Below are positions 12,569-58,200 of a DNA stretch of 64,000 nucleotides, piece by piece (the stretch's first letter is position 1; the number at the start of each line of letters is the position of its first letter). A program made the translations under genes and the position numbers. The notes under the pieces are model-generated. The model worked only from the letters and a program-made list of their open reading frames with translations, ran no database searches and was not told the DNA's origin. The DNA is taken from the NCBI GenBank assembly GCA_963815405.1, contig CAWFGR010000008.1, positions 384,316 through 448,315 on the forward strand. Direction: 5' to 3'. Source of the DNA: an uncultured Actinomycetes bacterium. GTDB taxonomy: Bacteria; Actinomycetota; Acidimicrobiia; IMCC26256; DASPTH01.

Positions 12569-12669
12569 GCGTGGACGGCGCGTCACCGCCGACTCGACGG
12601 CTGTCGACATCGGTCCACCTCTCGCCCGGGCATCATCCGGCTCGGCGGGCTCGTCGCGGAGCAGGACAG

Positions 12670-12879
12670 CTACTCCTGCTTCGTGCGCTTGAGAAGCACT
12701 GCGACTGTCTCATCGGTCAGCTCGGTGATGGCGACCGCTTCCCAGCCCTGTTCTCCAACGTCATCAAGGGCTCGGACGGCAGCAGATTCGCCGCGTCCAG
12801 CCGTCGGAGCTTCGAACCGAGGGAGAGCAAGCAGCAGATACTCCCATTTCGCGGCGCCGTGGCTGTCGGCGAGGCTCAT
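12670..12879 (-). CDS. DUF4177-like small protein
   Basis: ATG 12879. The KWEYLLLALPRFE ... LDDVGEQGWEAVAI pattern matches the family. Confidence 0.6.
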   Translation of the reverse strand: MSLADSHGAAKWEYLLLALPRFEAPTAGRGESAAVRALDDVGEQGWEAVAITELTDETVAVLLKRTKQE

Positions 12880-13069
12880 CGGTGGGGCCCCCGGTGCGGG
12901 CGCACCTTCCAACACACGTTGGGGTGGCCGTTGCGGTTCCCGAGATCCTGCCCGAAGACCCCGTGGCCGAGCTCCCGCTCCACCCGATCACGTTCTTTGG
13001 CCACCGCGGCGATCACGGACGGGTCCTGGATGCGAGGCCACTCGGGTGCTGGCGGGTTCGTGATCGCAT
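12876..13069 (-). CDS. Small hypothetical protein, translationally coupled to the DUF4177 gene (probable indel near its 5' end)
   Basis: The stop overlaps the downstream ATG (ATGA at 12876-12879). A strong GGAGG-N4-ATG sits at 13069. The plausible coding frame (PEWPRIQDPSVIAAVAKERDRVERELGHGVFGQDLGNRNGHPNVCWKV) is offset by one from that ATG. Confidence 0.35.
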
Positions 13070-13110
13070 CACGACCTCCGTGCCGGGAACCAGTCGAATT
13101 ATTGTAGCTT

Positions 13111-13144
13111 GTTTCAAGAAATCATCTGCTATAGTCAAGCAGCC
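13111..13144 (+). promoter_or_regulatory. AT-rich promoter/operator-like motif (TGCTATAGTCA, -10-like TATAGT at 13130-13135)
   Basis: Second copy of the motif seen at 11519-11552, again between divergent genes. Confidence 0.35.
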
Positions 13145-13276
13145 AGGTCACCGGAGGCGCGCACCCCCTCTTCGCGCGGTCGCCGCGTGTGCCTCACTGC
13201 ATGTTCTCTTCATCTCTTCGCCGTGGTGTGCGGGATCGGCGGCCCAGCAACGCCCCCACGACGAACGGAGCCTGCC

Positions 13277-13519
13277 ATGGCGCATCCTACGCGAGATGAC
13301 TTCGGGGTCCTGTGCGACTACTGGAGCGGCGGTGCGCTCCGCGACGCGACCGCCGGCGAGCTTGCGGCGAGCCTGGCCGCGCAGGACTCGGCCCGTGGAA
13401 TCGTCGTGGTCGATCGGACGGCCTGCACCGTCCAGCCGCGCGGCGCATCACACCTGACCGTGGATCGAACCGTCGCGCCGCCTCGAACCCTTGCCGAGGC
13501 TGCAGCGCATTCGGGATAG
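13277..13519 (+). CDS. Hypothetical small protein (80 aa)
   Basis: ATG 13277 within track ORF 13109..13519, downstream of the AT-rich motif. No family recognised. Confidence 0.35.
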   Translation: MAHPTRDDFGVLCDYWSGGALRDATAGELAASLAAQDSARGIVVVDRTACTVQPRGASHLTVDRTVAPPRTLAEAAAHSG

Positions 13520-13616
13520 TCGGAGGGCCCCCGTGGGTCTTCGTCGACGCTGCGCAGTGTCCGCGGCGACGAGGCTCGAACACCCACCGCATCGTGCGCC
13601 AACGTGCGGGCCAGGT

Positions 13617-14153
13617 TCAGATCATCCTGTAGTAGCCGTACACGTCGACGATGAAGTCGGTTCTGCCGTTGCCTCCGGCGTTGACGGCGAGCTCGTGATT
13701 CGGCGTTCCGGTGGGAACAGTGACCATGTTCGCGAGCACCTGCCCGTTGGCCGACCAGTTGATGGTGCTGACGTTCGGCAGGGGAGCACCTGCGGCGAAG
13801 ACTCTCAGCCAACCGTCACTGTTCGTCGTTGTGTTCACGACGGTGATGTTGACGAGCACTGCCACGGCGTCGCCGGGAAGTTGTGACATCGTGACCGGAC
13901 GGAACGCGCCGCTCGTCATCGGCCCTGCAGGATCGGTGCGGGAGTCATACGCGCGAAACGGGCTGACGGGTACAAAGACCGCAGGCGTGTCGGCACTCTG
14001 CTGCGCCTCGGCGTCATCGCCGTGCAGTGTCATCGCGACGAGCCCGATACCCACGCACAGAGCGGCCGCGGTTGCCAGTGCCATCACGCGGCGGCGGGTC
14101 GGGTGCTTCGTGTTCGTTCCTTCCTGGGTTCCTCGCACATCGAGCATGTTCAT
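13617..14153 (-). CDS. Secreted/membrane-anchored hypothetical protein
   Basis: ATG 14153 follows GGAGG. It has an N-terminal hydrophobic anchor (VMALATAAALCVGIGLVAM) and a beta-rich domain ending DVYGYY, as in many actinobacterial secreted proteins. Confidence 0.65.
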   Translation of the reverse strand: MNMLDVRGTQEGTNTKHPTRRRVMALATAAALCVGIGLVAMTLHGDDAEAQQSADTPAVFVPVSPFRAYDSRTDPAGPMTSGAFRPVTMSQLPGDAVAVLVNITVVNTTTNSDGWLRVFAAGAPLPNVSTINWSANGQVLANMVTVPTGTPNHELAVNAGGNGRTDFIVDVYGYYRMI

Positions 14154-14607
14154 GTGTCCTCCCCGTGGGTTCGGCGAGGCGCGCCAATCGCGCGTCGTTG
14201 TGTACTCATCTCTGCGTACCCACGATGATTGTGAAATCGAGTCGGTCTCGCGACGTTTGCATGGCAACTCCGCGCACGGGCCGAGGCCGGCTTACCGACG
14301 CTCCGTTCGCATGAGCGTCGTCTGATCGTCACGAAGTCCCCCGATTCGGAATCGAGCCCCGGGTAGCGTCGAGGGATGTTCACGGTCGAGTACCGGTGTC
14401 CGACGCACGCTCGGGTCGAGCATGTCGACCCCGCGGAGGCAAGCCCGTCATGCCCGTTCCTGATTCGACGCGAGGTCTTCGGAGGTCAGAGTCTCGAGCG
14501 CTACGGACTCCCGTTGCACGCGTCCTCGACGTAGCGGGATCGAAGTCCGGGGTGTCCCTCACCACGTCTCACGGCCGAGCTCCTCGTCCGCGTATCGTTG
14601 CGAGGTC

Positions 14608-16189: not shown

Positions 16190-16304
16190 CGCCAGGAACC
16201 CTGGTTCGCCGACCGCTCCATTCGCCCCAGGTAGCATCGCCGACGCCCGTCGAGCAGGAGTCTTCTCCGGCGAATTCGACCGGGCCCCCACCCCGTGCCC
16301 CGTT

Positions 16305-16378
16305 GCCCCGTTAGCTCAGAGGATGAGAGCGGCCGCCTCCTAAGCGGCAGGTCGTTGGTTCGAATCCAACACGGGGCG
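16305..16378 (+). tRNA. tRNA-Arg (anticodon CCT)
   Basis: Manual cloverleaf: acceptor GCCCCGT/ACGGGGC, D arm GCTC-AGAGGATGA-GAGC, anticodon arm GCCGC-CTCCTAA-GCGGC, T arm GTTGG-TTCGAAT-CCAAC. Confidence 0.9.
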
Positions 16379-16392
16379 CCCCGAACAATCGC

Positions 16393-29697: not shown

Positions 29698-30884
29698 GTC
29701 GAGTGTCGGCGCGCGTCGCCGGGATCGCCGAGTCGGCGACCCTCGCGGTCGACGCGAAGGCGAAGGCCCTGAAGGCGGCGGGCCACGACGTGGTCGGCTT
29801 CGGTGCGGGAGAGCCCGACTTCCCGACGCCGGCCGCGATCGTCGAGGCCGCGGTCGAGGCATGCCGCGACCCGAAGAACCACCGCTACACGCCGACGCCC
29901 GGCCTCCCCGAGCTGCGGGAGGCGATCGCCGCGAAGACCGCGCGCGACTCCGGGCTCACGGTCACGGCATCACAGGTCCTCGTGACCAACGGCGGCAAGC
30001 ACGCGGTCTACAACACGTTCCAGGCGCTGCTCGACCCCGGCGACGAAGTCATCGTGCCGGCGCCGTACTGGACGACGTATCCCGAGGCGATCAAGCTCGC
30101 CGAGGGCGTGACCGTGGTCGTGTCGACCACGGAGGCCGACGGCTTCCTCGTCACCGTCGAGCAACTCGAGGCGGTGCGCACGCCGCGCACCAAGGTGCTG
30201 CTCTTCGTGTCGCCGAGCAACCCGACCGGCGCGGTGTACCCGCGCGAGGCGGTCGAGGCGATCGGCCGCTGGGCCGCCGAGCACGGGATCTGGGTCGTCA
30301 CCGACGAGATATACGAGCACCTCACGTACGGCGACCACGAGTTCACGTCGATGCCCGCGCTCGTGCCCGAGCTTGCCGGCACCTGCGTGATCCTCAACGG
30401 CGTCGCAAAGACGTACGCGATGACGGGCTGGCGCGTCGGCTGGATGATCGGCCCGCGCGACGTGATCGACGCGACCACGAATCTGCAGTCGCACCAGACG
30501 TCGAACGTGTCGAACGTCGCCCAGCGCGCCGCGCTCGCCGCGGTCAGCGGCGACCTCTCGGCCGTCGCCGAGATGCGCGCCGCTTTCGAACGGCGCGGGC
30601 GGGTGATGCACGAGATGCTCACGCGCATCCCCGGTGTGACCTGCCTGGAGCCGCAGGGTGCGTTCTACTGCTTCCCGAGCTTCGAGGGCGTGCTCGGTCG
30701 CGCGCTCGGCGGGCGCACGGTCGACGACACCTTGACCCTGTGCGAGGTCGTGCTCGAGGAGGCTCGCGTCGCGATCGTGCCGGGCGAGGCCTTCGGTGCT
30801 CCGGGCTACGCGCGCCTCTCGTTCGCGCTCGGTGAGGACGCCCTCGTCGACGGCATCGAACGGATCGCCAAGCTCCTCGCCTGA
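29694..30884 (+). CDS. Pyridoxal-phosphate-dependent aminotransferase (aspartate aminotransferase family)
   Basis: The GTG overlaps the helicase stop (GTGA). Class I aminotransferase motifs: [18 protein letters not shown]. Confidence 0.9.
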
Positions 30885-30996
30885 GGGCGCGAGGTCAGTC
30901 GGTAGGCAAGTGGCAACCACGAGGGCGCCACGTCGGGCGATGGTGTGACCGTTGGACGTGCCGCGCGAAGAACGCGGTCGAACGCGAGGAGGGGTC

Positions 30997-31266
30997 ATGG
31001 CGCAGACTGCGGGTGGGCTGACCACCACGGCGGCTTTGCAACGGCCTTGGCCGTATGTAGGCGCGGTGGCGCTCTCATTGGTCACCACACCAGTGATCTT
31101 CACCGTGCCGCTGTTCTTGGGTGTCGTTGTTGGCGCCTTCGGCGCTCTTGGCGGCGTGTTCAGTAGGAGCGATCGTGGTCTGGCTCAAGGGTTCCGGGTG
31201 TTGTTTCTCGGCCTTGCGCTGCTCACTGGTCCGGCGTCGTACCTGCTGTTGGCTGTCGTCAACTAG
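30997..31266 (+). CDS. Small membrane protein (89 aa)
   Basis: ATG 30997 follows GAGGAGG. It has three hydrophobic helices and visibly lower GC than its neighbours. Confidence 0.5.
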   Translation: MAQTAGGLTTTAALQRPWPYVGAVALSLVTTPVIFTVPLFLGVVVGAFGALGGVFSRSDRGLAQGFRVLFLGLALLTGPASYLLLAVVN

Positions 31267-31392
31267 AACCGCGCCCGCGGCCTCCATCTCCGAATCCAGC
31301 GCAGGGACGAGGGACGCACCTTCCTGAGGCACGTTCCCCGGCGGGCCTACGGTTGTGATGCATGGGCGCACCGAACGGGGCAGAATGCCGGT

Positions 31393-32100
31393 ATGGCAGG
31401 GCAGCGAGTAAGAGCAGTCGCGCTGGGAGCAGCGGCCGTCGCCGCCGCGACTGTCGGGATCGTTGCAGTTGATGGCGACTCGTCGCCGAGCGCAGCGCCC
31501 GCCTCGTCCACGACCGTGACCACTACGACGACGAGGGCGACAGAGACGGCTCCACCGACGACAAGCCCGCCAACCACGGTCCCTCCGACGACCCAGCCGA
31601 CCACGTGTGCCATTCCCAGCGACGCGCGGCTTTCATGTTCCTCCCGCCTCGGCTATGCGGGGCTCGGACCGATCATGCTCGGCATGACCCTCGCGAAAGC
31701 CGAAGAGGTTGGACAGGTCACGTTCCGATCAACCGTCTGCGACAAGATCGTGGAACCCAAGCCGGGGAGCGCTCTGGAGCCGGTCAGCACCTCTTACGGG
31801 ATGAACGTTGGCGTCCAGGTCTGGGGCGGCGGCGCTGAGCCGATTGACGCGATCACCGTGCAGAACCCGGCTCTCTACACCATCTCGGGTGTGCACGTGG
31901 GCAGCACCTATGACGAGGTGCGCCGAACGTACCCCGACGCGGCAGAGGTCGACGACGCAAGTTCGACCCATCCGGGAAGCCTCACGATTAGGAACACCGA
32001 AGGCAGGACTCTCACGTTCTCTTTCGCTCAGGATCGGACCGTTGGGGTAATGAGCCTCGGACTCACGCCAGCGACGAGCGAGCAGCACAGCAGGTGCTAG
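31393..32100 (+). CDS. Secreted hypothetical protein with Thr/Pro-rich linker
   Basis: 235-aa ORF with an N-terminal hydrophobic signal, a TTVTTTTTRATETAPPTTSPPTTVPPTTQPTT linker and a Cys-containing globular domain. Confidence 0.55.
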   Translation: MAGQRVRAVALGAAAVAAATVGIVAVDGDSSPSAAPASSTTVTTTTTRATETAPPTTSPPTTVPPTTQPTTCAIPSDARLSCSSRLGYAGLGPIMLGMTLAKAEEVGQVTFRSTVCDKIVEPKPGSALEPVSTSYGMNVGVQVWGGGAEPIDAITVQNPALYTISGVHVGSTYDEVRRTYPDAAEVDDASSTHPGSLTIRNTEGRTLTFSFAQDRTVGVMSLGLTPATSEQHSRC

Positions 32101-32256
32101 GAGTCGTTCGCGCTGCCGTATGCCTGACGCCACGTTGCCCTCCGCGGCTTTGACCGAGCGCGCACCGTACACAGAAGCTGACCTGAATACCGGCGTCGGG
32201 GTGCCCATGCGCACTCGGTAGGGTGGCTCGAGGGCGTCGAGCGGGGGAGCAGGATC

Positions 32257-33277
32257 GTGCAACAGGACGAGGCCGTCGCGACGAGGGGTGGTGTCGACGC
32301 CGCCGTGACGGTGCGGGGGCTGGTCAAGCGGTACGGCGATGTGACCGCCGTTGACGGCATCGACTTCGACGTCGCACCGGGCGAGACCTTCGGGTTCCTC
32401 GGCCCCAACGGTGCGGGCAAGTCGACCACGATCTCGATTCTGTGCACGCTCACGGATCCCAACGGCGGGCTCGCGCGAGGTCGCCGGCTTCGACGTCGTG
32501 AAGCAGCGCGGCGAGGTGCGGCGCCGCATCGGTCTCGTGTTCCAGGACACGACGCTCGACCTCTACCTCACCGCCGAGCAGAACCTCCGCTTCCACGCCG
32601 ACCTCTATGGCGTGCCGCGCGCGGTGTTCGCCGATCGACTCCGCCAGGTGCTCGAGATGGTCGGCCTGTGGGAGCGACGCGCGAGCCGCGTCTCGACGTT
32701 CTCCGGCGGCATGAAGCGCAGGCTCGAGATCGCGCGTGGTCTGTTGCACTCGCCGCGCGTCCTGTTCCTCGACGAGCCGACCGTCGGGCTCGACCCGCAG
32801 ACCCGCAGGTCGATCTGGCGCTACATCCACGAGCTGCGCGAACGCGAGGAGATCACGATCTTCCTCACGACCCACTACATGGACGAAGCCGAGCACTGTG
32901 ACCGCATCGCGATCATGAACCATGGCCGGATCATCGTCCTCGACACCCCCGAGGCGCTCAAGGAGAGCGTGGGGAAGGACCGCGTGCAGATCGTCACCGA
33001 CGACGACGATGCGGCGATCGCCCAACTCCGGCAGCGTTTCGGCATCGATGCCGCGGTGCACGACGGCGCCGTCACGTTCGCGGTCCCGAACGGCGAGCAG
33101 TTCGTGCCGTCGCTGTTCGCGCAGTTCTCGGGCCGGATCAGGTCCGTGAGCGTCGCCCGGCCTTCGCTCGACGACGTCTTCCTCTCGTACACGGGGACGA
33201 CCATGAGCGACGCCGAAGCATCGGCCGGCGAGCGGTTGCGGGCGACACCGGTGCTGGCGGCGAGGATGCGGCGATGA
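32257..33277 (+). CDS. ABC transporter ATP-binding protein (DrrA-like; apparent frameshift at 32467-32469)
   Basis: Walker A GPNGAGKST, signature SGGMKRR, Walker B LFLDEPT. Track ORFs 32257.. and 32351.. join at a GGG run. Confidence 0.9.
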
Positions 33278-36815: not shown

Positions 36816-38063
36816 ATGGCGGACCGAGAGTCGCGGTGGGCTGGCCGCGCGCCGGGGCCGTTGTCGCCGTTGCGCCATCCGCGGTTCGCGACGTTGTGGG
36901 GCTCGTGGGTCGTCTCCAACATCGGCTCGTGGATGCAGACGATCACGGTGCCATTCGTCGTCGACGACATCACCCATTCGACGACCTGGGTGGGGCTATC
37001 GGTCTTCGCGAGCCTCTTCCCCGTGTTCCTCGTGTCGCCGATCGCAGGGCCGATTGCCGACCGGTTCTCACGGCGGCGCATCGTGATCGGCGCGCAGGTG
37101 GTGATGTTGCTGGCCGCCGTGGGCTTGTGGCTTGTGAGCAGCACCGACACGCGGTCGCCGGGCCTCGTGCTCGCGCTCGTGGCGATCTCGGGTGTCGGCG
37201 TCGGGTTCACGTACGTCACGTGGCAGACGCTGATCCCGGATCTCGTGCCGCCCGAGGAGTTCCTCTCGGCCGTGCGGCTCAGTGTGACGCAACAGAACGC
37301 GGGGCGGGCGGTTGGTCCGGCGCTCGCCGCACTGGTGCTCCAGACGTTCGGCGCCTCGACCGCATTCATGGTGAACGCGCTCGTCGTTCCTCGGTGTGAT
37401 CGGCGCGCTGCTCGTGCTGCCGGAGGTCGCACGCGTGCCCGTCGAGCGGACGGGCGGCCTCGTTGCCGACTTCCGAGCCGGCATCACCTACGTCCGAGCT
37501 CGAGCCGCACTCGGGGTCATCATGATCGTGTTCGTCGCGTACTCGTTGCTCGGATCGGCGATGGTCCAGCTCGCCGAACCGCTGGCGCGGCATGTGCTGG
37601 CAACCAAGAGCGGATACGGGCTGATGGTGTCGGGGTTCGGCGTCGGCGGCCTTGTCGGCTCCGTCATCGGGGTGGGCTCCGGGACCGCATCCGTCGCTCG
37701 AGCCTGCTGCTCGTCGGTCTCGGGACGTTCGTGCTGGGCCAGATCGCGCTCGGCGCCGCGCCGTCGGTAGCGATCGCGACCGTCGCGATGACCCTCATGG
37801 GCGTCATGCACGTGCTCGTCGTGTTCGGCGTCACGACGACGCTCCAGTCGAACGCCAGCAATGACTACCGCGGGCGGGTCATGTCGCTCGTGCTCACCTT
37901 CGGGTTCTTCGCGCAGCCGGTCGGGGCGCTCCTCGGCGCGGTGATCGCCGGATGGGTGGGGCTGCGCGAGGCGATCGTCGGTGCCGCCCTGTGGCTCCTC
38001 GTGATCAACCTGGGACTCGCTGCTGCGCACCAAAGCCCTCGCTGCGGTCGACGACTCGCTATG
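36816..38063 (+). CDS. MFS transporter (EntS/MFS_3-like; at least two apparent frameshifts; 3' end uncertain)
   Basis: ATG 36816. TM helices run through track ORF 36438.. and track ORF 37396.., then return to the first frame, with changes near 37381 and at GGG 37681. No in-frame stop occurs before serA. A KALAAVDDSL-stop ending at ~38063 needs one more shift. Confidence 0.75.
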
Positions 38064-38141
38064 AGCAGCGCCAACGGTTTTCGAGACCAGCGGGCGTTTC
38101 GAGCACCGGTCGGCCCGGGGGCGCCGTCTAGCCTCGCGCCG

Positions 38142-39728
38142 ATGAATCCCCGAGTTCTCGTGACCGAGCAGCTGGCCGAGCGCGGCCTCGAATCGATGCG
38201 GGCCGCCGGGCTCGACGTCGACGTGCAGCTCGACCTGTCGCCCGCGCAGCTCCTGGAGGCGGTACCCGGTGCCGCCGCGCTCGTCGTGCGCAGCGCGACG
38301 CAGGTCACCGCAGACGTCGTCGAGGCGGGGAGCGAGCTCATCGTGGTGGGCCGTGCGGGCATCGGGCTCGACAACGTCGACGTCGAAGCGGCCACCAAGC
38401 GCGGCGTGATGGTCGTGAACGCGCCGCAGTCGAACGTGCTCTCCGCCGCGGAGCAGACGATCGCTCTGCTGCTTGCGCAGGCGCGCAACACGCCGCAAGC
38501 CGACCGAGACCTCAAGGGCGGCGCGTGGAACCGGTCGCGCTGGGAAGGCGTCGAGCTGCACGGCAAGACGCTCGGCATCGTGGGCCTGGGTCGTGTCGGT
38601 GTCCTCGTTGCCCAGCGGCTGCTCGCGTTCGGGATGCACCTGATGGCGTACGACCCGTACGTGAGCGCGGATCGTGCGCGCCAGCTCGGTGTCCAGCTCG
38701 TGGGCACGATCGAGGAGCTCGTGGCCGAGGCCGACTTCGTCACCATCCACCTCCCCAAGACGCCCGAGACCATCGGTCTGTTCGACGCCGCCCTGCTCGC
38801 GCGCGCCAAGCCCGGGATCCGGATCGTGAACACGGCGAGGGGTGGGATCATCGACGAGCAGGCACTCGCCGACGCGATCCGCAGCGGCCAGGTCGCGGGC
38901 GCGGCGCTCGACGTGTTCGCGAAGGAGCCGACGACCAACTCGCCGCTGTTCGGCCTCGACTCCGTCGTCGTGACGCCGCATCTCGGCGCGTCGACCGTCG
39001 AGGCACAGGACAAGGCGGGCCAGACGATCGCCGAGCAGGTGGTGCTCGCGCTCAAGGGCGAGTTCGTGCCGTTCGCCGTGAACCTCGCGGCGAAGGAAGC
39101 GAACGCGACCGTCCAGCCGTTCCTCCCGCTCGCCGAGCGCTTGGGGCGTCTGTTCACCGCGCTCGCCTGCGGTTTGGTCGAGACGCTCGAGGTGACCTAT
39201 GAGGGCCAGATCGCCGACTACGACTGCCGAGTGCTGACGCTCGCAGTGCTCAAGGGCATCCTCGGCCCCGTCACCGACGAGCCGGTCAGCTTCGTGAACG
39301 CGCCCCAGATCGCCGCGGACCGCGGGCTCGTCGTGCGCGAGACGACACAGTCCTCGGCTCGCGACTACGTCAACCTCATCGAGTTGCGCGGCCATACGAC
39401 GGATCGTTCGACCCACGTGGCCGGGACGCTCTACGGCAAGCAGGAGGCGCCGCGGATCGTCGCGATCGACGACCACCTCGTCGACCTCCCGCCGTCGAGC
39501 CACATGCTCGTGGTCCGCAACACCGACGTCCCCGGGATGATCGGCAAGGTCGGCACGATCCTTGGTGATGCCGGCATCAACATCAACGAGCTCGCGCTCG
39601 GCCGCAGCCCCGGCGGTGAGGTGTCGCTCCAGGCGATCTCGACCTCGACCCCCGTGCCCGCAGGCGTGGTCGAGCACCTCCGGAGCGAGCCGGGCATCGT
39701 CGACGCGCGACCGATCGAGCTCGACTGA
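38142..39728 (+). CDS. serA: D-3-phosphoglycerate dehydrogenase (long form with ASB and ACT domains)
   Basis: ATG 38142. Motifs: GIVGLGRVGVLVAQR NAD site, TPHLGAST. The C-terminal ACT segment is VVRNTDVPGMIGKVGTILG. Confidence 0.95.
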   Translation: MNPRVLVTEQLAERGLESMRAAGLDVDVQLDLSPAQLLEAVPGAAALVVRSATQVTADVVEAGSELIVVGRAGIGLDNVDVEAATKRGVMVVNAPQSNVLSAAEQTIALLLAQARNTPQADRDLKGGAWNRSRWEGVELHGKTLGIVGLGRVGVLVAQRLLAFGMHLMAYDPYVSADRARQLGVQLVGTIEELVAEADFVTIHLPKTPETIGLFDAALLARAKPGIRIVNTARGGIIDEQALADAIRSGQVAGAALDVFAKEPTTNSPLFGLDSVVVTPHLGASTVEAQDKAGQTIAEQVVLALKGEFVPFAVNLAAKEANATVQPFLPLAERLGRLFTALACGLVETLEVTYEGQIADYDCRVLTLAVLKGILGPVTDEPVSFVNAPQIAADRGLVVRETTQSSARDYVNLIELRGHTTDRSTHVAGTLYGKQEAPRIVAIDDHLVDLPPSSHMLVVRNTDVPGMIGKVGTILGDAGININELALGRSPGGEVSLQAISTSTPVPAGVVEHLRSEPGIVDARPIELD

Positions 39729-44797: not shown

Positions 44798-45429
44798 CCG
44801 GCGTCAACCTGTGGTCGGGCGCGCAGCACGCGCGCACGTACCTCGACCGGCGCGACGCGATCCCGCATCGGGTCGAGGCGTACCCCGTGCTCCTCGAGCT
44901 GCTCCCGGAGCACCCGCAGCGCGTGCTCGACCTCGGGACGGGCGACGGCCTCCTGCTCGACGTGGTACGCGACGCCCATCCCGAGGTGGACTGCGTTGGC
45001 GTCGACTTCTCGACGACCATGCTCGACGAAGCGGCACGCCGCTTCGCGGGCGGGGTCGGAGTGACGTTCGTGCAGCACGACCTCGATCAGCCGCTCCCGG
45101 GCCTCGGCGGCTTCGACGCGGTGGTCTCGGGCTTCGCGATCCACCACCTCGTCGACGAGCGCAAGCGCGCGCTCTTCGGTGAGGTGTTCCAGCTGCTCGA
45201 GCCCGGCGGGGTGTTCTGCAACCTCGAACACGTCGCGTCGCCCACGGCGCGCCTCCACGACGCGTTCCTCGACGCGCTGGGCCGGCTCCCCGAGGACGAC
45301 GACCCGTCGAACAAGCTTGCTCCGGTCGACGAGCAGCTGGGATGGCTCAGGGACGCCGGGTTCGACGACGTCGACTGCTTCTGGAAGTGGCGGGAGCTCG
45401 CGCTGCTCGCCGGCGTGCGCCCACGCTGA
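44794..45429 (+). CDS. Class I SAM-dependent methyltransferase
   Basis: The ATG overlaps the leuA stop (ATGA). It has a VLDLGTGDG motif I and a Methyltransf_11/25-like core. Confidence 0.8.
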   Translation: MTGVNLWSGAQHARTYLDRRDAIPHRVEAYPVLLELLPEHPQRVLDLGTGDGLLLDVVRDAHPEVDCVGVDFSTTMLDEAARRFAGGVGVTFVQHDLDQPLPGLGGFDAVVSGFAIHHLVDERKRALFGEVFQLLEPGGVFCNLEHVASPTARLHDAFLDALGRLPEDDDPSNKLAPVDEQLGWLRDAGFDDVDCFWKWRELALLAGVRPR

Positions 45430-45445
45430 GGCCCCCGGTGCGCCG

Positions 45446-46042
45446 CTACGCGGGGATGCGCGGAAACCAGTCGGGCCGTGATGCCTCGAAGGTGTCGATC
45501 TCGGCTGCGTGACGCAACGTGATGCCGATGTCGTCGAGACCTTCGAGCAATCGCTCGTGGTGGAAGTCCTCGAGCTCGAACGGCTCGTCGAGGTCGATGG
45601 CCGGGACTGCGACGCGCCGGTCGACCACGTCGATGACGACCTCGAGCGTGGGGTCGTCCTCGACGGCCCGCATGATGCGCGTGACCACCTCCACCGGGAG
45701 GGTCACCGGGAGCAGGCCGATCTTCAGGCAGTTGTTGCGGAAGATGTCGGCGAAGCGGGGCGAGATGATCGCCCGGAAGCCATAGTCCTCCAAAGCCCAC
45801 GGCGCATGCTCGCGTGAGGATCCGGTGCCGAAGTTCGGTCCGGCCACGAGGATCTGCGCGCCGTCGTACTGCTCCTGGTTGAGGACGAAGTCGGAGCTCT
45901 CACGCCACTCCGAGAAGAGGCCCTGGCCGAAGCCGGTGCGCTCGACGCGCTTGAGCCAGTCGCTCGGGATGATCTGGTCGGTGTCGACGTCGGCCCGGTC
46001 GAGTGGCACGGCGCGGGCGACGATCTCGCGTACGGGTTCCAT
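45446..46042 (-). CDS. leuD: 3-isopropylmalate dehydratase small subunit
   Basis: ATG at 46042 within track ORF 45446..46408. Motifs: DVDTDQIIP, GPNFGTGSSREHA. Confidence 0.95.
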   Translation of the reverse strand: MEPVREIVARAVPLDRADVDTDQIIPSDWLKRVERTGFGQGLFSEWRESSDFVLNQEQYDGAQILVAGPNFGTGSSREHAPWALEDYGFRAIISPRFADIFRNNCLKIGLLPVTLPVEVVTRIMRAVEDDPTLEVVIDVVDRRVAVPAIDLDEPFELEDFHHERLLEGLDDIGITLRHAAEIDTFEASRPDWFPRIPA

Positions 46043-47469
46043 CAGCGCTCCAAGTCCTGAGGCGTCGCGAAGCGGCCGACGACCGCCGTCGCCGCAGCGA
46101 CCGCGGGTGCGACTAGGTGAGTGCGACCGCCCTTGCCCTGGCGACCCTCGAAGTTGCGGTTCGACGTGGACGCGCACCGCTCGCCCGGAGCGAGCTTGTC
46201 GGGATTCATCGCGAGGCACATGGAGCATCCGGCCTCGCGCCACTCGAAGCCGGCGGCGCGGAACACGGCGTCGAGCCCCTCGCGTTCGGCGGCGGCCTTC
46301 ACGCGCATGGAGCCGGGCACGACGAGGGCGCGCAGTCCCGAGCGGACGTGACGGCCGTGCAGGACGTCGGCCGCGGCGCGGAGATCCTCGATCCGCGAGT
46401 TCGTGCATGAGCCGATGAACACGGTGTCGACCTCGATGTCGCGCATCGCGGTGCCGGCCTCGAGCCCCATGTAGGCGAGCGCGCGCCGGGCCGAGTCGCG
46501 CGCAGCGAGATCGGTGAACGAGTCGGGATCAGGGACCGCATCGTCGATCGTCACCGACTGCGCCGGGTTCGTGCCCCAGGTCACCGACGGGCGGAGCGTG
46601 CTGGCGTCGATCACCACCTCCCTGTCGAACGCGGCACCGTCGTCGGTGGCGAGCGTGCGCCAGTCGACGAGGGCGCGTTCCCACGCCGCGCCCGTTGGCG
46701 CGAGGGGTCGCCCTTCGAGATATGCGAACGTGACGTCGTCGGGTGCGATCATCCCGGCGCGCGCCCCGGCCTCGATCGACATGTTGCAGATGGTCATGCG
46801 GCCCTCCATCGAGAGGGCGCGAATCACCGACCCGCGGTACTCGAGCACCGAGCCGATTCCGCCACCCGTTCCGATGCGGTTGATGATCGCGAGCACGACG
46901 TCCTTGGCCGTCACACCCGCGGGAAGATCGCCCTCGACGGTGATCGCCATCGTGCCGGGCCTCGCCTGGGGCAGCGTCTGGCTTGCCAGCACGTGCTCGA
47001 CCTCGCTGGTACCGATGCCGAACGCGAGCGCGCCGAACGCGCCGTGCGTGGACGTGTGGCTGTCGCCGCAGACGATCGTCATGCCCGGCTGCGTGAGGCC
47101 GAGCTCTGGACCGATCACGTGGACGATGCCCTGCCCGGGGTCGCCCATCGCGTAGAGACGGATGCCGAACTCGGCGCAGTTGCGCGCCAGTACCTCCATC
47201 TGCTTGGCGGAGATCGGATCGGCGACGGGCTGGTCGATGTCGGTCGTCGGGACGTTGTGGTCCATGGTCGCGACCGTGAGGTCCGGACGGCGCACGCTGC
47301 GACCAGCGAGCCGCAGACCGTCGAACGCCTGCGGTGAGGTGACCTCATGCACCAGGTGGAGGTCCACGTAGAGGAGATCGGGCTCGCCCTCGGCCCGGCG
47401 CACCACATGGCGCTCCCAGACCTTCTCCGACAAGGTGCGCGGCTCGGACGGGGTTCGCGGCTCGGGCAT
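46042..47469 (-). CDS. leuC: 3-isopropylmalate dehydratase large subunit
   Basis: ATG at 47469 within track ORF 46042..48027. Aconitase-family motifs: [32 protein letters not shown]. The stop overlaps the leuD start. Confidence 0.95.
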
Positions 47470-47661
47470 GGTCCGATTCTGCCAGGTGACCCGGGTCGTG
47501 CCCGGGCGGAATGGCCCCTTGTGGTGCGATCGTGCGGCAAGCGACGCTTCACTCCGGTGTAACGAAGCCGAAACATGACCTCCGTACCGTGCGTCCATGG
47601 TGTCGGAGCAGTCGTCGGCGTCCCGACGGATGCCGTGTGGATGGTCGTGGGCAGGTTCGAC

Positions 47662-48182
47662 ATGGCGATGAGCGACGAGATGGATGTCGTGTTGTTGCGG
47701 TGGCCCGAGGAACAGGTTCGTCTCGAGCGGCTGCGAGCCTCGGGGGCCCCACGCCTCCTGCTCGTGGGCGACGAGCTCGCGGCGCCCGAGCCGATCGACA
47801 GCTTGGAGGACTGGATCCGCCTTCCGGCCGCTGAGGGCGACCTCCGCGTCCGCGTCGCGACCCTGGCGGCGCGGGCCGTACCGCGCGGTCCGCTGCGCCC
47901 TCCGTCGACGAGGACGGCCTGCTGCGCTACGGCGGCCGCTGGGTGACGCTGTCGCCGGTCGAGCGCGCGCTCGGTGCTGCGCTGGTGGAACGCTTCGGTG
48001 CGGTGGTCGGCCGTGACACGCTGGCACGGCGCGCGTGGCCCGGTGGTACGCCCACCCGCAACGCGCTCGACGTCCACATGCTGCGGCTCCGGCGCCGGAT
48101 CGCGCCCCTGCACCTCGAGGTACGGACCGTCCGGGCTCGCGGCTACCTGCTCCAGGGCCGCGAACTGCACGGCTCGAGCTGA
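47662..48182 (+). CDS. OmpR/PhoB-type winged-helix DNA-binding protein with short atypical receiver-like N-domain (apparent frameshift between 47835 and 47895)
   Basis: Track ORFs 47575..47946 and 47943..48182 join. The C-terminal segment [34 protein letters not shown]...[12 protein letters not shown]...[11 protein letters not shown] is a trans_reg_C domain. The start is uncertain. Confidence 0.7.
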
Positions 48183-48185
48183 CCG

Positions 48186-50931
48186 GTGGATGTCGGAACC
48201 GTCCTCCTGGACATCCTCGTCATCCTGGTGGCAGCGAAGCTCGCGGCCGAGGTGGCCGAGCGCGTCGGTGTCCCTGCCGTCGTGGGCGAGATCATCGCCG
48301 GCGCGGTCATCGGGCCGTCCGTGCTGGACCTCGTGCACGCGAACCAGACCGTCATCGCGCTCGGCGAGATCGGCGTGATCCTGCTGCTCTTGCAAGTCGG
48401 GATGGAGATGAACCTCTCCGAGCTCGGCGCCGTGGGGCGCGCGTCGGTCTCGGTGGCGATCGTCGGCGTAACGGTACCGATGGTGCTCGGGTACGGAGCG
48501 TCGAGCGCACTGGGTGACAACTCCAACACGGCGTTGTTCCTGGGAGCAGCACTCGCAGCCACGAGCGTCGGGATCACGGCGCGCGTGTTCTCGGACCTCC
48601 GGTCGCTTGCGACCGTCGAGGCTCGCACGGTGCTCGGCGCCGCAGTCGCGGACGACGTCATGGGTCTGGTGATCCTGACGGTCGTCGTCCGCATCGTCAG
48701 CGGCGGATCCGTCTCGGTCTCGCAGGTCGCGGGGATCATCGGCATCGCGATCGGCTTCCTCGTGGTCGCGGCGCTCCTCGGGACAAAGCTCGCGCCGGGA
48801 CTCTTCCAGCTCCTCGACCGTCGGGCGCGCTCGGCCGGCACGCTGGTGGCGCTCGCGTTCGCGTTCACGCTGGGGTTCTCGGAGCTCGCCGACGCAGCCA
48901 AGCTCGCACCGATCGTGGGTGCGTTCGTGGCCGGGCTCTCGTTGTCGCAGAGCAAGGTCTCCGACCGAATCCATCGTGAGCTCTCGCCCGTCGGCCACCT
49001 CTTCATCCCGGTGTTCTTCCTCCTCATCGGCATCCAGGCGGACGTCGGGGAGTTCGTGCATCTGGGCGTGCTGAAGACCGCGGCGGTGCTGTTCGTGGTC
49101 GCGATCGTCGGCAAGTTCGTCGCGGCCTGGGGCATGGGGCGGGCACCCGGTGACCGGCTCCTCGTCGGCTTCGGCATGATCCCCCGCGGCGAGGTGGGCC
49201 TCATCTTCGCGACGATCGGACTGCGCGAAGGCGTCCTCGACCGCGAGCTCTACGCGGCGCTGTTGCTGGTGGTCCTCGCCACCACGCTCATGACGCCGCC
49301 CTTGTTGCGCCTGCGAATCCAGCAGCTGCGGGCTCGACATTCGGGAGGGATGGGCGAGGTCGGCGAGCCACGCCCGGGGGGCGGCTGGCTCGAGCGGGTC
49401 GACGGAGTGGTGGACCTCGCCGCGCGGCCGCCGGGGCACGCGAGCTTGGACGTGGCGATGGACGCGGCGCTCGCCATCGCCGCGGGGCACGACCGGGCGC
49501 GGAGCTGCTCGACTGGCTCGGACGTTGGGACGGCGCGTCGCCGCGATGGAACGCTGCGGCGACCGACCATCTGTTCGCTGTTCTCACGGCTGGCGACGCC
49601 CGCGCGTGGCGCTTCCTCGAGACGACGGGCGTGCTGGAACGCGCCCTCCCCGAGCTCGCCGCCGCGCTTCGTCGCCGGCGCTCCGACCCGCACCTGCTCG
49701 ACCCCGCGCAGGTGCTCCAGTTCGGACTCGTCGAGGACATCCGTGGGTTGATTCGCGATGACCCGAACACGGCAACGGTGCACGCCGAGCTCGAGCACCC
49801 TGAATGGCTCCTGCTCGCGGCGTTGATCTTCGAGACGGTCGACGAGGCGGAGGCGCCCGTGGAGCTCGCGCGGCGGCTCGCGCATCGGCTGGATCTCGGC
49901 GCGCAGGCCGAGGAGGAGCTCGCGCTCCTCGTCGGCGACTCCGACCTGCTCAGGGCCGCGGCGCGGCGGGTGGACGGCCTCGAGGAAGAGGTGGTCTTCC
50001 CGGTGGTGAGCCATCTCGGCCGACCCGAGCGGGCTCGAGCGCTGTATCTGCTGACCTTGGCCCTCAACGATCTCACGCTTTGGGAACGCGAGCGTCTGGA
50101 TCGGCTCTTCGAGGTGGTCCTCGGGTTGCTCGAGCAGCCGGAGGTCGCCGGTCGCGCAACCCGGAACCTCGTCGAGCGTCGCCGGGCCGAGGCGAAGCGT
50201 CTCGTGGGCGCCGACGAGCGCGTCGGCGAGCGCATCGAGCACGCGCCGCGGGCCTACCTCTTGGCGCAGGACCCCCGCGACATCGTTCGGCAGGCCGCGC
50301 TGCTGGTGCCACTCCCCGCCCGGAACCAGGTGCGGGTGGCTGTGGAGCCCTCGGGCCCTTCCGAATGGCGGGTCGAAGTCGGCTCACCGCGACCGCCCGG
50401 GTCTTCTCGCGACGATCTCCGGTGTGTTGGCGCAGCACGGACTCGACATCGTCGACGCCGTGGTCGCCACGTGGGGCGACGGCGGTGCTCTTGACTCATT
50501 CCGTGTCCAACGCGCGGAGCTGACGCCCGCGCAACTCGACGCCGAGCAGCTCGCGAAGATCCCCGCTCCCGATCCAAGCGCGCTCGGAAGCCGCGATCAG
50601 GGGGTTGTTCGACGCACCCCTGGAGTCGCCGCCGAACCCCGACGCCGAGGTGCGATTCGACGATCATTCCTCGCCCTGGTACACGGTGTGCGAGGTCCGC
50701 AGCCCGGACCGGCGCGGGCTGCTCCACACGATCACGGTGGCCATCGCCAGCGCGGGAGCGAGCATCCACTCCGCGCGCCTGGTGACGAGTGGTGGGACCG
50801 CCGTGGACCGCTTCGAGCTCACCGATCGCAACGAGCGCAAGCTGGACGACTCGGCAAAGGAGGCGATTCGCAGTGCGGTGGCGAGCGGAGTGCTTGCTCG
50901 GCGGAGACTGTCCCCGCGCCGGCGTCGCTGA
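48186..50931 (+). CDS. Cation:proton antiporter (CPA2 membrane domain) fused to a GlnD-like regulatory region with two ACT domains (three apparent frameshifts)
   Basis: The N-terminal ~385 aa form a Na+/H+ exchanger fold ([14 protein letters not shown], 12-13 TM helices). The same frame continues into a GlnD-like segment ([16 protein letters not shown].., LERALPEL). ACT domains: [24 protein letters not shown] and [25 protein letters not shown]. Frame changes occur at ~49501, ~50381 and ~50585. Confidence 0.75.
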
Positions 50932-50943
50932 GGTGAGCCCGGC

Positions 50944-51411
50944 TCAGGCGGCGCGCACGCTCACGATCTGGACCGCGAAGGTGCGCCGCGGCCCGGTGTA
51001 GCTCACCATCTCACCGGGCGCGTGGCCGAGGAGCGCCTGCCCGAGCGGCGACGACGTCGACAGCACCTCGAGCGACTCGTGACGTTCCTCGATGGAGCCG
51101 ACGAGGTACGAGGTGGTCTCGTCATCGCCTTCGACGCGGATCTCGACCACGGTGCCCGGAGCCACGACATCGCCCGCGGGTCCCTCGACGACCACGGCGA
51201 CCTTCAGCATCTGGTCGAGTTGGCGGATGCGCGCCTCGTTGTGACCCTGCTCGTTCTTCGCCGCGTCGTAGTCGGCGTTCTCGCGGATGTCGCCGTGCTC
51301 GCGTGCCCGCTCGATCCACGCGGAGATGTCGCGGCGGCGAGTGGTCGAACGCTCCTCGAGCTCTTCGCGGAGACGCTCCAACGCCTGTTGGGAGAGGTGT
51401 GCCGGTTCCAT
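50944..51411 (-). CDS. greA: Transcription elongation factor GreA
   Basis: 155 aa with the coiled-coil N-domain DIRENADYDAAKNEQG and the GreA C-terminal domain. Confidence 0.95.
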   Translation of the reverse strand: MEPAHLSQQALERLREELEERSTTRRRDISAWIERAREHGDIRENADYDAAKNEQGHNEARIRQLDQMLKVAVVVEGPAGDVVAPGTVVEIRVEGDDETTSYLVGSIEERHESLEVLSTSSPLGQALLGHAPGEMVSYTGPRRTFAVQIVSVRAA

Positions 51412-55994: not shown

Positions 55995-57975
<1,981 letters not shown>

Positions 57976-58029: not shown

Positions 58030-58104
58030 TCGGGGGTGGTGTAATCGGCAACACAACAGGTTCTGGCCCTGTCATTGGGGGTTCGAGTCCTCCCCCCCGA
58101 GCCA
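58030..58104 (+). tRNA. tRNA-Gln (anticodon CTG), CCA encoded
   Basis: Manual cloverleaf: acceptor TCGGGGG/CCCCCGA, D arm GTGT-AATCGGCA-ACAC, anticodon arm ACAGG-TTCTGGC-CCTGT, T arm GGGGG-TTCGAGT-CCTCC. Confidence 0.85.
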
Positions 58105-58122: not shown

Positions 58123-58195
58123 GGCCCCGTCGTCTAGCGGCCTAGGACGCCGCCCTCTCAAGGCGGAAGCGGCAGTTCGAATCTGCTCGGGGCTG
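58123..58195 (+). tRNA. tRNA-Glu (anticodon CTC)
   Basis: Manual cloverleaf: acceptor GGCCCCG/CGGGGCT, D arm GTCT-AGCGGCCTA-GGAC, anticodon arm CCGCC-CTCTCAA-GGCGG, T arm GGCAG-TTCGAAT-CTGCT. Confidence 0.85.
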
Positions 58196-58200
58196 CACAC

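Follow-up and report, generated by a model that had tools for sequence, protein, structure and literature searches.

A NapA-type antiporter fused to a GlnD-derived tail with two ACT domains in uncultured soil Acidimicrobiia

A gene within the 64,000 nucleotides of DNA analysed here (the window) encodes a NapA-type CPA2 antiporter and a GlnD-derived tail as one polypeptide (Table 1). The fusion is genuine and is conserved among uncultured Acidimicrobiia of soil; it is present in 64 species-level genomes, all of them from uncultured Acidimicrobiia/Actinomycetota. The overall explanation that we favour, with a probability of about 0.6, has three parts: (i) the fusion gene belongs to a conserved two-gene operon; (ii) it encodes a metabolite-gated NapA-type antiporter in which a catalytically dead GlnD serves as the sensor; and (iii) the frame breaks in the window copy are errors.

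Table 1. Coordinates in the window of the fusion gene, its parts and its upstream region.
Feature	Position	Strand	Basis or remark
Promoter/operator motif (putative): three direct repeats 11 bp apart, N10, TACCGT	47548..47590	+	repeat-pattern search
OmpR/PhoB-family winged-helix regulator, ~165 aa	47680..48182	+	Trans_reg_C; 12-orthologue profile
Fusion gene	48186..50931	+	~912 aa once three 1-nt indels are corrected; tblastn with P0004 and homologues
NapA-like CPA2 antiporter membrane domain, aa 1–385	48186..49340	+	PF00999, NapA 4BWZ, Foldseek
Linker and first tail sub-domain (ends LLDWLG); beta-hairpin and two helices; holds frameshift 1	49341..49531	+	family conservation; AF2 pLDDT >90
Frameshift 1, 1-nt deletion in G-run (after LAIAAG)	49484..49487	+	tblastn with P0004
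GlnD-homologous region: pre-HD helices, HD-like domain, post-HD helices, ACT1, ACT2	49532..50928	+	TIGR01693, BLASTP, hhalign
Degenerate HD-like domain (= E. coli GlnD 467–600)	49700..50080	+	hhalign alignment, column counts
Frameshift 2, 1-nt insertion (EVGS / RDRPGLL)	50385..50388	+	tblastn with P0004
ACT domain 1	50388..50519	+	PF01842 E = 2.2e-8; beta-alpha-beta-beta topology in AF2 model
Frameshift 3, 1-nt insertion (PDPSAL / EAAIRGLF)	50583..50586	+	tblastn with P0004
ACT domain 2	50683..50874	+	PF01842 E = 5.3e-9; beta-alpha-beta-beta-alpha topology in AF2 model

Architecture and distribution of the fusion gene

The ORF at 48186–49751 (+) contains the whole Na_H_Exchanger domain and continues in-frame into ~50 aa of family-specific tail before the first frame break. 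When searched with tblastn, P0004 (an intact homologue of 912 aa) is covered by the window from residue 1 to residue 912 in four collinear pieces: frame 3 (48186–49487), frame 2 (49484–50401), frame 3 (50382–50585) and frame 1 (50527–50925). An earlier note on this DNA had proposed the fusion and held that its junction does not depend on indel corrections. Both claims are borne out, with the junction in one frame upstream of the first indel and intact homologues of 880–930 aa in every 'non-MFD' assembly examined, and the peptides quoted in that note were all found where it had placed them. The suggestion that an antiporter and a stand-alone GlnD-like protein are two genes, with indel errors producing an apparent fusion, is practically untenable: the window sequence is prone to indels and some database entries of 480–580 aa begin near the tail, but the junction is in-frame, all 'non-MFD' loci uncut by a contig end (among the 64 species-level genomes) have one ORF of 880–930 codons, nine of the ten shorter entries tested are N-terminally truncated Na_H_Exchanger fragments, and the tenth (P0125, 561 aa), which has no Na_H_Exchanger match, has just 46 residues before its tail. 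The existence of intact single-ORF orthologues therefore refutes it.

Database matches to the fusion exceed 2400, and the best 120 are all 880–934 aa long with 95–100% query coverage. In a profile search of 1.84 billion representatives, the best 150 matches are exclusively family members, and among the entries checked the tail was not seen joined to any other N-terminal partner. The full-text literature searched yielded no published description of an antiporter–GlnD/ACT architecture. The earlier view of the architecture as an undescribed family thus needs qualification: it is widespread in one lineage and is held in databases under generic names, yet it is uncharacterised.

The antiporter membrane domain

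The membrane domain is a complete CPA2 domain. PF00999 (Na_H_Exchanger) matches aa 16–374 over profile positions 6–373 of 375 (E = 2.9e-66), and the CPA2 subfamily model TIGR00932 is matched over positions 1–273 of 275 (E = 7.9e-54), although with 183 bits, below its cut-off of 238. Residues 7–375 align to residues 7–372 of Thermus thermophilus NapA (PDB 4BWZ) with 38% identity (E = 4.8e-61), and a Foldseek comparison of the full-length model with NapA 5BZ2 gives a TMt of 0.88, also at 38% identity. The completeness that the earlier note described is thus upheld, but its Kef-type label is not (NapA, E = 5e-61; KefC, E = 9e-17).

The ion-site residues of NapA (4BWZ, 5BZ2, 5BZ3) are kept. The D156–D157 pair is invariant in column counts over 121 and over 37 sequences, and D156, D157, K310, R334 and E336 are all invariant in 48 sequences; K310 is the equivalent of NapA K305, while R334 and E336 correspond to NapA R331 and E333. 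Electrogenic CPA2 clades are marked by Asp at motif position 6 and Lys at position 8 (PMC6181914), and by this residue criterion the Asp–Asp pair and the TM10 Lys would place the antiporter among them. The NapA chain of 4BWZ (394 aa) stops after the membrane domain, whereas the fusion family adds ~530 cytoplasmic residues.

Other CPA exchangers share the design of a transporter with a fused sensor. In Escherichia coli KefC and KefB (PDB 8BXG), which are glutathione-gated K+/H+ CPA2 exchangers, a membrane domain homologous to that of the fusion is controlled by a ligand-binding domain fused to it on the cytoplasmic side. However, the KefC and KefB models (NF002924 and NF002973) match the membrane part alone (aa 5–390). 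The Kef regulatory domain is a C-terminal KTN/RCK domain, and in its place the fusion has an unrelated GlnD-derived ACT module; Pfam finds no KTN/RCK (TrkA_N) domain in the tail. The ion site is DD in the fusion, as in NapA, and QD in Kef. The eukaryotic exchangers SOS1 and sperm SLC9C1, which carry large cytosolic sensors, are among the Foldseek matches of the full-length model. They likewise combine an exchanger core with a fused ligand-sensing tail, but their sensors (CNBD and VSD) are unrelated to the tail described here and the likeness is limited to the exchanger core.

The GlnD-derived tail

The tail is homologous to GlnD, as the earlier note had recognized. TIGR01693 positions 369–845 of 850 align in one stretch to aa 449–897 of P0004 (E = 2e-36; P0064, E = 2.6e-37; P0099, E = 7e-37), with a score of 125.6 bits that lies below the equivalog cut-off of 519.4. 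Direct comparison with E. coli GlnD (b0167) gives E = 6e-8 in BLASTP, and a probability of 97.7% with E = 1.4e-12 in hhalign. The collinearity of the fusion tail with GlnD starts shortly ahead of the HD domain and extends to the C terminus. The homologous part amounts to the C-terminal ~55% of GlnD and not to two thirds, as first estimated. It also begins downstream of PF08335 (GlnD_UR_UTase), which occupies residues 192–330 of E. coli GlnD; the pre-HD segment (LFAVL...) that had been assigned to this family aligns instead to GlnD 415–460, just before the HD domain. PF08335 has no match at E ≤ 0.1 in the window pieces or at E ≤ 10 in 10 family members. The nucleotidyltransferase domain is at residues 84–143 of E. 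coli GlnD, upstream of the part matched from TIGR01693 position 369 onwards, and NTP_transf_2 has no match in any window piece, in line with the earlier claim that this domain is absent. Compared with GlnD, the fusion tail thus has neither the nucleotidyltransferase nor the PF08335 domain, has lost HD metal ligands and is attached to a membrane transporter.

The two C-terminal ACT domains predicted in the earlier note are both recognized by PF01842 and are collinear with E. coli GlnD ACT1 and ACT2 in BLASTP and hhalign alignments. The E-values of these Pfam matches, like those of Na_H_Exchanger and Trans_reg_C, lie well outside chance expectation. Both keep the Gly-containing beta1–alpha1 loop typical of ligand-binding ACT domains (RDRPGLL and PDRRGLL).

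In the first ~55 aa of the tail, no sequence similarity to GlnD or to any Pfam family could be detected. With hmmsearch and with hhalign of aa 390–560, aa 457–552 give a marginal collinear match to E. coli GlnD 415–517 (E = 0.02–0.06), and nothing was found for aa 395–456. By eye, the N-terminal part of the tail may resemble E. coli GlnD 352–400.

The central 295–336 aa match neither PF08335 nor HD nor any other credible Pfam family (E ≤ 0.1 in the window, E ≤ 10 in 10 members), and a profile of the central region finds no match among PDB sequences. The PDB holds no GlnD structure, and E. coli GlnD has no solved relative there. AF2 models the central region confidently (pLDDT 86); the full protein has a pLDDT of 82 and a pTM of 0.61, with uncertain inter-domain geometry. 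The best PDB structural matches to the central 336 aa are class II tRNA CCA-/A-adding enzymes (3WFO–3WFS and 4WC2; E ~1e-4, TMq 0.50–0.61 over the whole query), which have 14–18% identity to the tail without a sequence-level match and whose catalytic head domain is absent from it. This likeness probably reflects a helical scaffold common to nucleotidyltransferase–HD enzymes.

Loss of the metal site in the HD-like domain

Column counts over 121 sequences show that the HD site is degenerate, as the earlier note had argued for the window copy. At the position of H513 in E. coli GlnD, Leu is present in 116 of the 121 and His in none, and the D596 position holds Leu, Ile or Val; two of the four HD metal ligands are thus lost in every member. 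The D514 position has Asp (104) or Glu (17), and the H470 position has mostly His (63) or Gln (54). The window copy has Q at 49709–11 (H470, aligned by eye), F-E at 49829–34 (H513–D514) and L at 50063–65 (D596).

The HD-like region is under purifying selection despite the lost metal ligands. Across the six closest pairs of genes, the central region has dN/dS values of 0.10–0.16, compared to 0.06–0.15 in the membrane domain and 0.15–0.34 in the ACT region. In GlnD, an enzyme with a single glutamine site, the HD domain carries the uridylyl-removing activity (PMC4285133). Residual enzymatic activity of the HD-like domain, such as that of a membrane-tethered phosphohydrolase or uridylyl-removing enzyme, is very improbable: the Asp/Glu of the dyad is kept and the first His is present in about half of the members, but the dyad His and the last Asp are replaced as above, Pfam HD has no match in the window pieces or in the 10 members, and the window copy reads Q…FE…L.

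The upstream regulator and its promoter motif

The fusion gene is linked to a small regulator gene, which lies directly upstream of it in ~42 of the 60 loci with enough flank, with gaps of ~0–80 nt where measured. In the window, the regulator stop codon (48180–48182) lies 3 nt before the GTG start codon of the fusion gene at 48186. The regulator has a conserved start (MDVVL) at 47680, with further in-frame ATGs at 47662 and 47668, and consists of a truncated receiver-like remnant (47680 to ~47880) and a winged helix–turn–helix (wHTH; 47898–48179), as the earlier note had outlined. Trans_reg_C matches the latter at E = 7.2e-13 in the window, and at 5e-13 and 2e-13 in two loci (L001 and L002) in which the gene is single-frame. 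A reading of the L001 regulator in another frame was rejected as an artefact of conserved upstream DNA.

A profile of 12 orthologues aligns to residues 95–220 of BasR/PmrA (E = 1.6e-10) and 74–223 of MtrA. Matches to OmpR/PhoB regulators (BasR/PmrA 4S04, MtrA 2GWR and PhoB; E down to 5e-15) cover receiver beta5–alpha5 and the wHTH alone. Most alignments start near chain residue 95, and the longest (MtrA, Mycobacterium tuberculosis PhoP and 8HIG) start at residues 67–87. In place of the full receiver of OmpR/PhoB regulators, the protein has only about 70 aa ahead of the linker; the beta5 Lys that is otherwise conserved has been substituted (DWIRLP), and Response_reg has no match even at E ≤ 1. 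The conserved neighbourhood contains no adjacent histidine kinase gene.

Upstream of the regulator gene lies a putative operator, proposed from the sequence pattern, with repeats TTCAC (47548–52), GTAAC (47559–63) and GAAAC (47570–74). The TACCGT at 47585–90 agrees with TANNNT, the −10 pattern of actinobacteria. The arrangement of direct repeats spaced 11 bp apart beside a −10 box is reminiscent of a pho box. The motif is unique in the window, where 0 matches are expected by chance, and 33 of 67 loci contain the repeat pattern exactly once. In every locus aligned or cross-checked against the regulator position, the pattern immediately precedes the regulator gene, except in L035, where it is directly upstream of the fusion gene. 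Rfam gives no riboswitch or leader above noise in 47300–48300.

Frame breaks in the window copy

Three 1-nt indels break the fusion gene in the window, and the regulator gene has a 1-nt deletion of its own at ~47881–47895. Most likely, the four indels are long-read assembly errors and the gene would be intact in the organism, because the fusion gene is multi-frame in 21 of the 29 'MFD…contig_N' loci (single-frame in eight) and in none of the other loci (single-frame in 35/35), and because other genes of the window are broken too. Window-wide frameshift detection (a codon-usage Viterbi path with Pfam checks) finds gltX and an MFS transporter gene each split over three frames, and an ABC transporter gene over two.

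Alternatively, the window fusion copy and the regulator gene could be true pseudogenes of an operon that is decaying in the organism, an unlikely reading for which two observations speak: the four indels cluster in 3.3 kb while seven flanking genes (leuCD, greA, yceI, leuB, ilvE and leuA) are intact, and just one of the four is in an obvious homopolymer run. However, besides the uneven occurrence of similar breaks among assemblies, the four segments are still 62–70% identical to P0004, are free of stops when each is read in its proper frame and lack any larger deletion, and one of the split genes encodes a tRNA synthetase (gltX) that is expected to be essential.

Proposed function

We propose that the two genes form an operon conserved in uncultured Acidimicrobiia. 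Its first gene would encode an orphan OmpR-family protein, whose receiver remnant has no detectable phospho-acceptor region and which probably binds the three repeats overlapping the −35 region of its own promoter. In the second, the N-terminal part would exchange Na+ (or K+) for H+ electrogenically, as a NapA-type antiporter, and the C-terminal part may be the remainder of a GlnD that has shed its nucleotidyltransferase and PF08335 domains, made up of a helical scaffold with an HD domain predicted to be unable to bind metal, followed by the ACT pair, which is likely the glutamine-sensing part of GlnD. The pair may bind a small metabolite, likely an amino acid, with glutamine as the first candidate and branched-chain amino acids as the second. 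Ligand binding would be relayed through the pseudo-enzyme scaffold to the transporter dimer, turning antiport on or off, so that the tail would do the job of the KTN/RCK domain in KefC.

Two other roles of the tail should be weighed. The better one, though we consider it improbable, is that the tail senses no small molecule but serves as a dock for the PII protein GlnK: the dead HD domain would still bind its substrate, and PII would report nitrogen and energy status to the antiporter, as in the case of AmtB. Membrane transporters are known to be regulated by PII proteins, GlnD acts on modified PII through its HD domain (PMC4285133), and the selection on the HD-like region after loss of its metal ligands would fit such a role. 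However, the conserved neighbourhood has no PII gene, and the ACT domains, which docking does not require, are conserved too. PII docking and ligand sensing by the ACT domains are compatible with each other.

The other role, which appears less probable still, is purely structural: the tail would hold the transporter dimer together or anchor it, without any part in signalling. ACT domains commonly dimerise, and NapA works without any tail. Against this, ~530 aa at dN/dS ~0.1–0.3 (closest gene pairs) would be costly for a mere spacer, and both ACT domains have the Gly loop of the ligand-binding type.

Returning to the metabolite-gated antiporter, its boldest form can be offered only tentatively, at rather less than even odds: the fusion may be the first ACT-gated secondary ion transporter, in which GlnD, stripped of both its activities, serves as a glutamine sensor that switches an electrogenic Na+/K+(/NH4+):H+ antiporter. 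In Acidimicrobiia that are abundant in soil but uncultured, the nitrogen status of the cell would thereby act directly on pH, ion or ammonium homeostasis.

Implications

Being conserved and specific to its lineage, the fusion family marks a group of uncultured Acidimicrobiia. The known fused sensors of CPA antiporters are KTN/RCK domains in Kef and the cyclic-nucleotide and voltage-sensor domains in SLC9C1, and a sensor derived from ACT/GlnD is undescribed in the literature searched. Should the tail indeed respond to glutamine or another amino acid, it would (i) link nitrogen or amino-acid status directly to ion/pH homeostasis, (ii) illustrate clearly how an enzyme can become a pseudo-enzyme signalling module and (iii) give access to the sensing half of GlnD, which is poorly understood: as a natural construct that lacks both catalytic functions, the tail may be more amenable to structural work.

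One gene in several reading frames

The first ORF (48186–49751, +) of the fusion gene (window 48186–50931, +; ∼912 aa after indel correction) has a GTG start and encodes a full Na_H_Exchanger domain (aa 16–374, Pfam E = 2.9e-66); beyond it, the coding signal passes through three further frames of this G+C-rich (∼70%) window. An intact 912-aa database homologue, P0004, matches the window by tblastn over residues 1–912 in four collinear pieces with 62–70% identity, with no stop codons in the correct frames over this range. Because the four pieces shift frame, three single-base indels can be located. The transporter-to-tail junction lies 5′ of the first indel, as the earlier note had maintained, and the notion of two separate genes rather than one fusion is refuted.

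Features located in the window, with the evidence or a description of each
Feature	Position	Strand	Evidence or description
Promoter motif TTCAC-N6-GTAAC-N6-GAAAC, N10, TACCGT	47548–47590	+	three 11-bp-spaced direct repeats
Fusion piece 1	48186–49487	+	frame 3, tblastn with P0004
Fusion piece 2	49484–50401	+	frame 2, tblastn with P0004
Fusion piece 3	50382–50585	+	frame 3, tblastn with P0004
Fusion piece 4	50527–50925	+	frame 1, tblastn with P0004
Indel 1, fusion gene	49484–49487	+	single-base deletion in G-run
Indel 2, fusion gene	∼50385–50388	+	single-base insertion
Indel 3, fusion gene	∼50583–50586	+	single-base insertion
gltX part 1, tRNA-synt_1c positions 2–130 (catalytic domain)	56525–56939	+	Pfam
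gltX part 2, tRNA-synt_1c positions 137–314 (catalytic domain)	56943–57527	+	Pfam
gltX part 3, Anticodon_2 (anticodon-binding domain)	57529–57951	+	Pfam

The frameshifts in the fusion gene and in the regulator gene directly 5′ of it (47680–48182, +; with its own 1-nt deletion at ∼47881–47895) are probably assembly errors, because (i) other window genes are broken, (ii) the breaks follow assembly type and (iii) neighbouring genes are split on related contigs. Window-wide breaks were traced with a Viterbi path fitted to the codon usage of local genes. The parts of gltX (glutamyl-tRNA synthetase) lie in three different reading frames, which is evidence of indel errors in the assembly; an MFS_3 transporter gene (36885 to ∼38000, +) also occupies three frames (36885–37382, 37384–37674 and 37677 onward), and an ABC ATPase gene (32227–33231, +) switches frame at ∼32455. 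Among the 64 species-representative genomes that carry the fusion gene, it is single-frame in all 35 assemblies not of the 'MFD…contig_N' type, whereas it runs through 2–8 frames in 21 of the 29 MAGs of that type (multi-frame loci: L005, L006, L014, L015, L026, L030, L033, L036, L037, L041–L045, L048, L052, L053, L059, L062, L064 and L066). To judge from their naming alone, the latter look like long-read MAGs. On the contigs of P0004 and a second homologue, P0064, the leuC, gltX and leuB/ilvE calls are likewise split. What speaks against assembly error is the local density of the indels, with leuCD, greA, yceI, leuB, ilvE and leuA unbroken in the window; that the window copy is a true pseudogene is improbable. 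Gene calls in the multi-frame MAGs therefore contribute many truncated 'proteins' to the protein databases.

A membrane domain of the NapA type

The earlier note had labelled the membrane domain CPA2/Kef-type, but its nearest solved structure is Thermus thermophilus NapA (E = 4.8e-61, residues 7–375), and KefC is far more remote (E = 9e-17). The full-length AF2 model shares 38% identity with NapA at a Foldseek TMt of 0.88. The D156–D157 pair shows no variation across 121 close and 37 diverse family members, and an alignment of 48 sequences has K310 (NapA K305), R334 and E336 in every member. Electrogenic CPA2 clades are marked by Asp at motif position 6 and Lys at position 8 (PMC6181914, Masrati et al. 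2018). Given the NapA similarity and the invariant ion-site residues, the domain looks like a functional NapA-type CPA2 antiporter rather than a Kef-type one.

A tail homologous to GlnD

Pfam gave no match on the central ∼336 aa of the tail, either in the window pieces or in family members. The NCBIfam GlnD model TIGR01693, by contrast, aligns from position 369 to 845 (of 850) with P0004 aa 449–897 in a single stretch (E = 2e-36), and with two other members at E = 2.6e-37 and 7e-37; all three score far under its equivalog cut-off of 519 bits. Tail aa 570–897 align with E. coli GlnD 540–879 (BLASTP, E = 6e-8), and hhalign matches family tail aa 529–904 to E. coli GlnD 494–886 (probability 97.7%, E = 1.4e-12). 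Pfam places NTP_transf_2 at 84–143, PF08335 at 192–330 and HD at 467–600 of the E. coli protein, with the best ACT match at 816–873 and a second ACT stretch also matched. From these alignments and this map, the tail is, at the level of sequence, the counterpart of GlnD from just N-terminal of the HD domain to the end; no GlnD counterpart was detected for its first ∼55 aa. Two ACT domains are recognized by Pfam (E = 2.2e-8 and 5.3e-9). ACT domains are the likely glutamine site of GlnD.

The HD site has decayed. The dyad His (E. coli H513, in the numbering of the translation used) is Leu in 116 of 121 members and His in none, the final Asp (D596) is replaced by Leu, Ile or Val, and the dyad Asp is retained as Asp in 104 members and as Glu in 17. 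By-eye alignment places His at the first HD position (H470) in 63 members and Gln in 54; the window copy reads Q…FE…L. The GlnD homology, the paired ACT domains, the missing nucleotidyltransferase domain and the degenerate HD site proposed from the sequence have all held up, but the segment assigned to GlnD_UR_UTase (LFAVL…[17 protein letters not shown]) aligns to E. coli 415–460, outside PF08335. The architecture and homology described here are close to certain.

The GlnD-derived module is still maintained, because the AF2 model of the central region is confident (pLDDT 86, pTM 0.73) and dN/dS across the six closest orthologue pairs is low there (0.10–0.16; membrane domain 0.06–0.15, ACT region 0.15–0.34). 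For the central region, the top PDB matches come from the class II CCA-/A-adding group (E ∼1e-4, TMq 0.50–0.61); the PDB contains no GlnD structure. We read the match as probably due to a helical scaffold that nucleotidyltransferase-HD enzymes have in common.

The upstream regulator and its putative promoter

A Trans_reg_C domain (Pfam, E = 7.2e-13) is present in the regulator, which stops 3 nt short of the fusion GTG in the window. Of the 60 loci whose flanks are long enough, ∼42 have the regulator directly 5′ of the fusion gene, with gaps of ∼0–80 nt where measured. The regulator profile matches OmpR/PhoB regulators only from receiver beta5-alpha5 on (BasR residues 95–220, E = 1.6e-10; MtrA 74–223), and Response_reg was not detected in it, in agreement with the short, atypical receiver-like domain noted earlier. 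For both reasons, phosphorylation is unlikely.

The repeat motif is single-copy in the window, with 0 chance matches expected, and occurs once in 33 of 67 loci (L001 9402–9428, L035 2737–2763 and 31 others). Wherever its position was checked it lies just 5′ of the regulator, except in L035, where it directly precedes the fusion gene and no adjoining regulator was found. The triple repeat looks like a putative pho-box-like operator overlapping the −35 region. Because the start codon follows TACCGT by a few nt in most aligned loci, a putative leaderless, autoregulated promoter is suggested. The window differs in having ∼80–90 nt (47591–47679) between the motif and the conserved MDVVL start; this spacer either extends the regulator N-terminally, with in-frame ATGs at 47662 and 47668, or is a 5′ UTR.

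Distribution and gene neighbourhood

The stitched fusion protein matched >2400 clusters, the best 120 of which are all 880–934 aa long with 95–100% coverage and carry generic names only ('cation:proton antiporter' or 'KefB'). At 50% identity clustering, the central-region profile finds 395 representatives at E<=1e-10, of which 188 reach E<=1e-30. In nine of ten shorter matches tested, the protein is an exchanger fragment cut short at its N terminus; in P0125, the remaining one, ACT domains alone were detected. All 64 fusion-carrying genomes are MAGs of uncultured Acidimicrobiia/Actinomycetota. The window organism is without a species-level representative among them; DNA identity to any of them is at most ∼82% over leuCD (45289–47461) and ∼73% over the regulator and fusion genes (47500–51000).

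The conserved gene order is leuD-leuC(−) / regulator(+) / fusion(+) / greA(−) / yceI(−) / leuB-ilvE-leuA-gltX(+). Right behind gltX are tRNA-Gln(CTG) and tRNA-Glu(CTC) (58030–58104 and 58123–58196, +); tRNA-Arg(CCT) is at 16304–16381 (+). The interrupted MFS gene is followed, without a change of frame, by serA (D-3-phosphoglycerate dehydrogenase, 37677–39722, +), an ordinary ACT-regulated enzyme with its own C-terminal ACT domain. Two stretches of 1.3–2 kb (12562–14562 and 30877–32226) are without coding signal on the Viterbi path, and neither Rfam (gathering threshold) nor ARAGORN finds RNA genes in them.

Proposed function and significance

On the best-supported reading, a GlnD-derived pseudo-enzyme sensor would set the activity of an electrogenic NapA-type antiporter. 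Both catalytic outputs of GlnD appear to be gone, which would leave the transporter as the only plausible output. We put the probability that the tail gates the antiporter by a metabolite at roughly one half. In GlnD, one glutamine site governs both activities (PMC4285133, Merrick 2015). That glutamine specifically is the gating ligand is a tentative proposal; the leu/ilv neighbourhood gives a weak hint of branched-chain amino acids as other candidates. The dead HD domain could alternatively be a docking site for PII, which is rather unlikely though compatible with ligand sensing. A purely structural tail is less probable still, and residual enzymatic activity in it is scarcely credible.

In principle the fusion protein would work as KefC does, with a CPA2 exchanger joined to a fused ligand sensor, but it is not a Kef protein because a KTN/RCK domain is absent. 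Nor is it a GlnD, because it lacks the nucleotidyltransferase domain, PF08335 and the HD ligands and scores below the TIGR01693 cut-off. Databases already list the proteins, under generic names, but literature searches found no published description of the fusion, neither of its architecture nor of what that implies. Known from computation alone, in uncultured organisms, the fusion is a clean, testable case of domain recruitment that is moderately surprising for specialists in transporters and nitrogen signalling.
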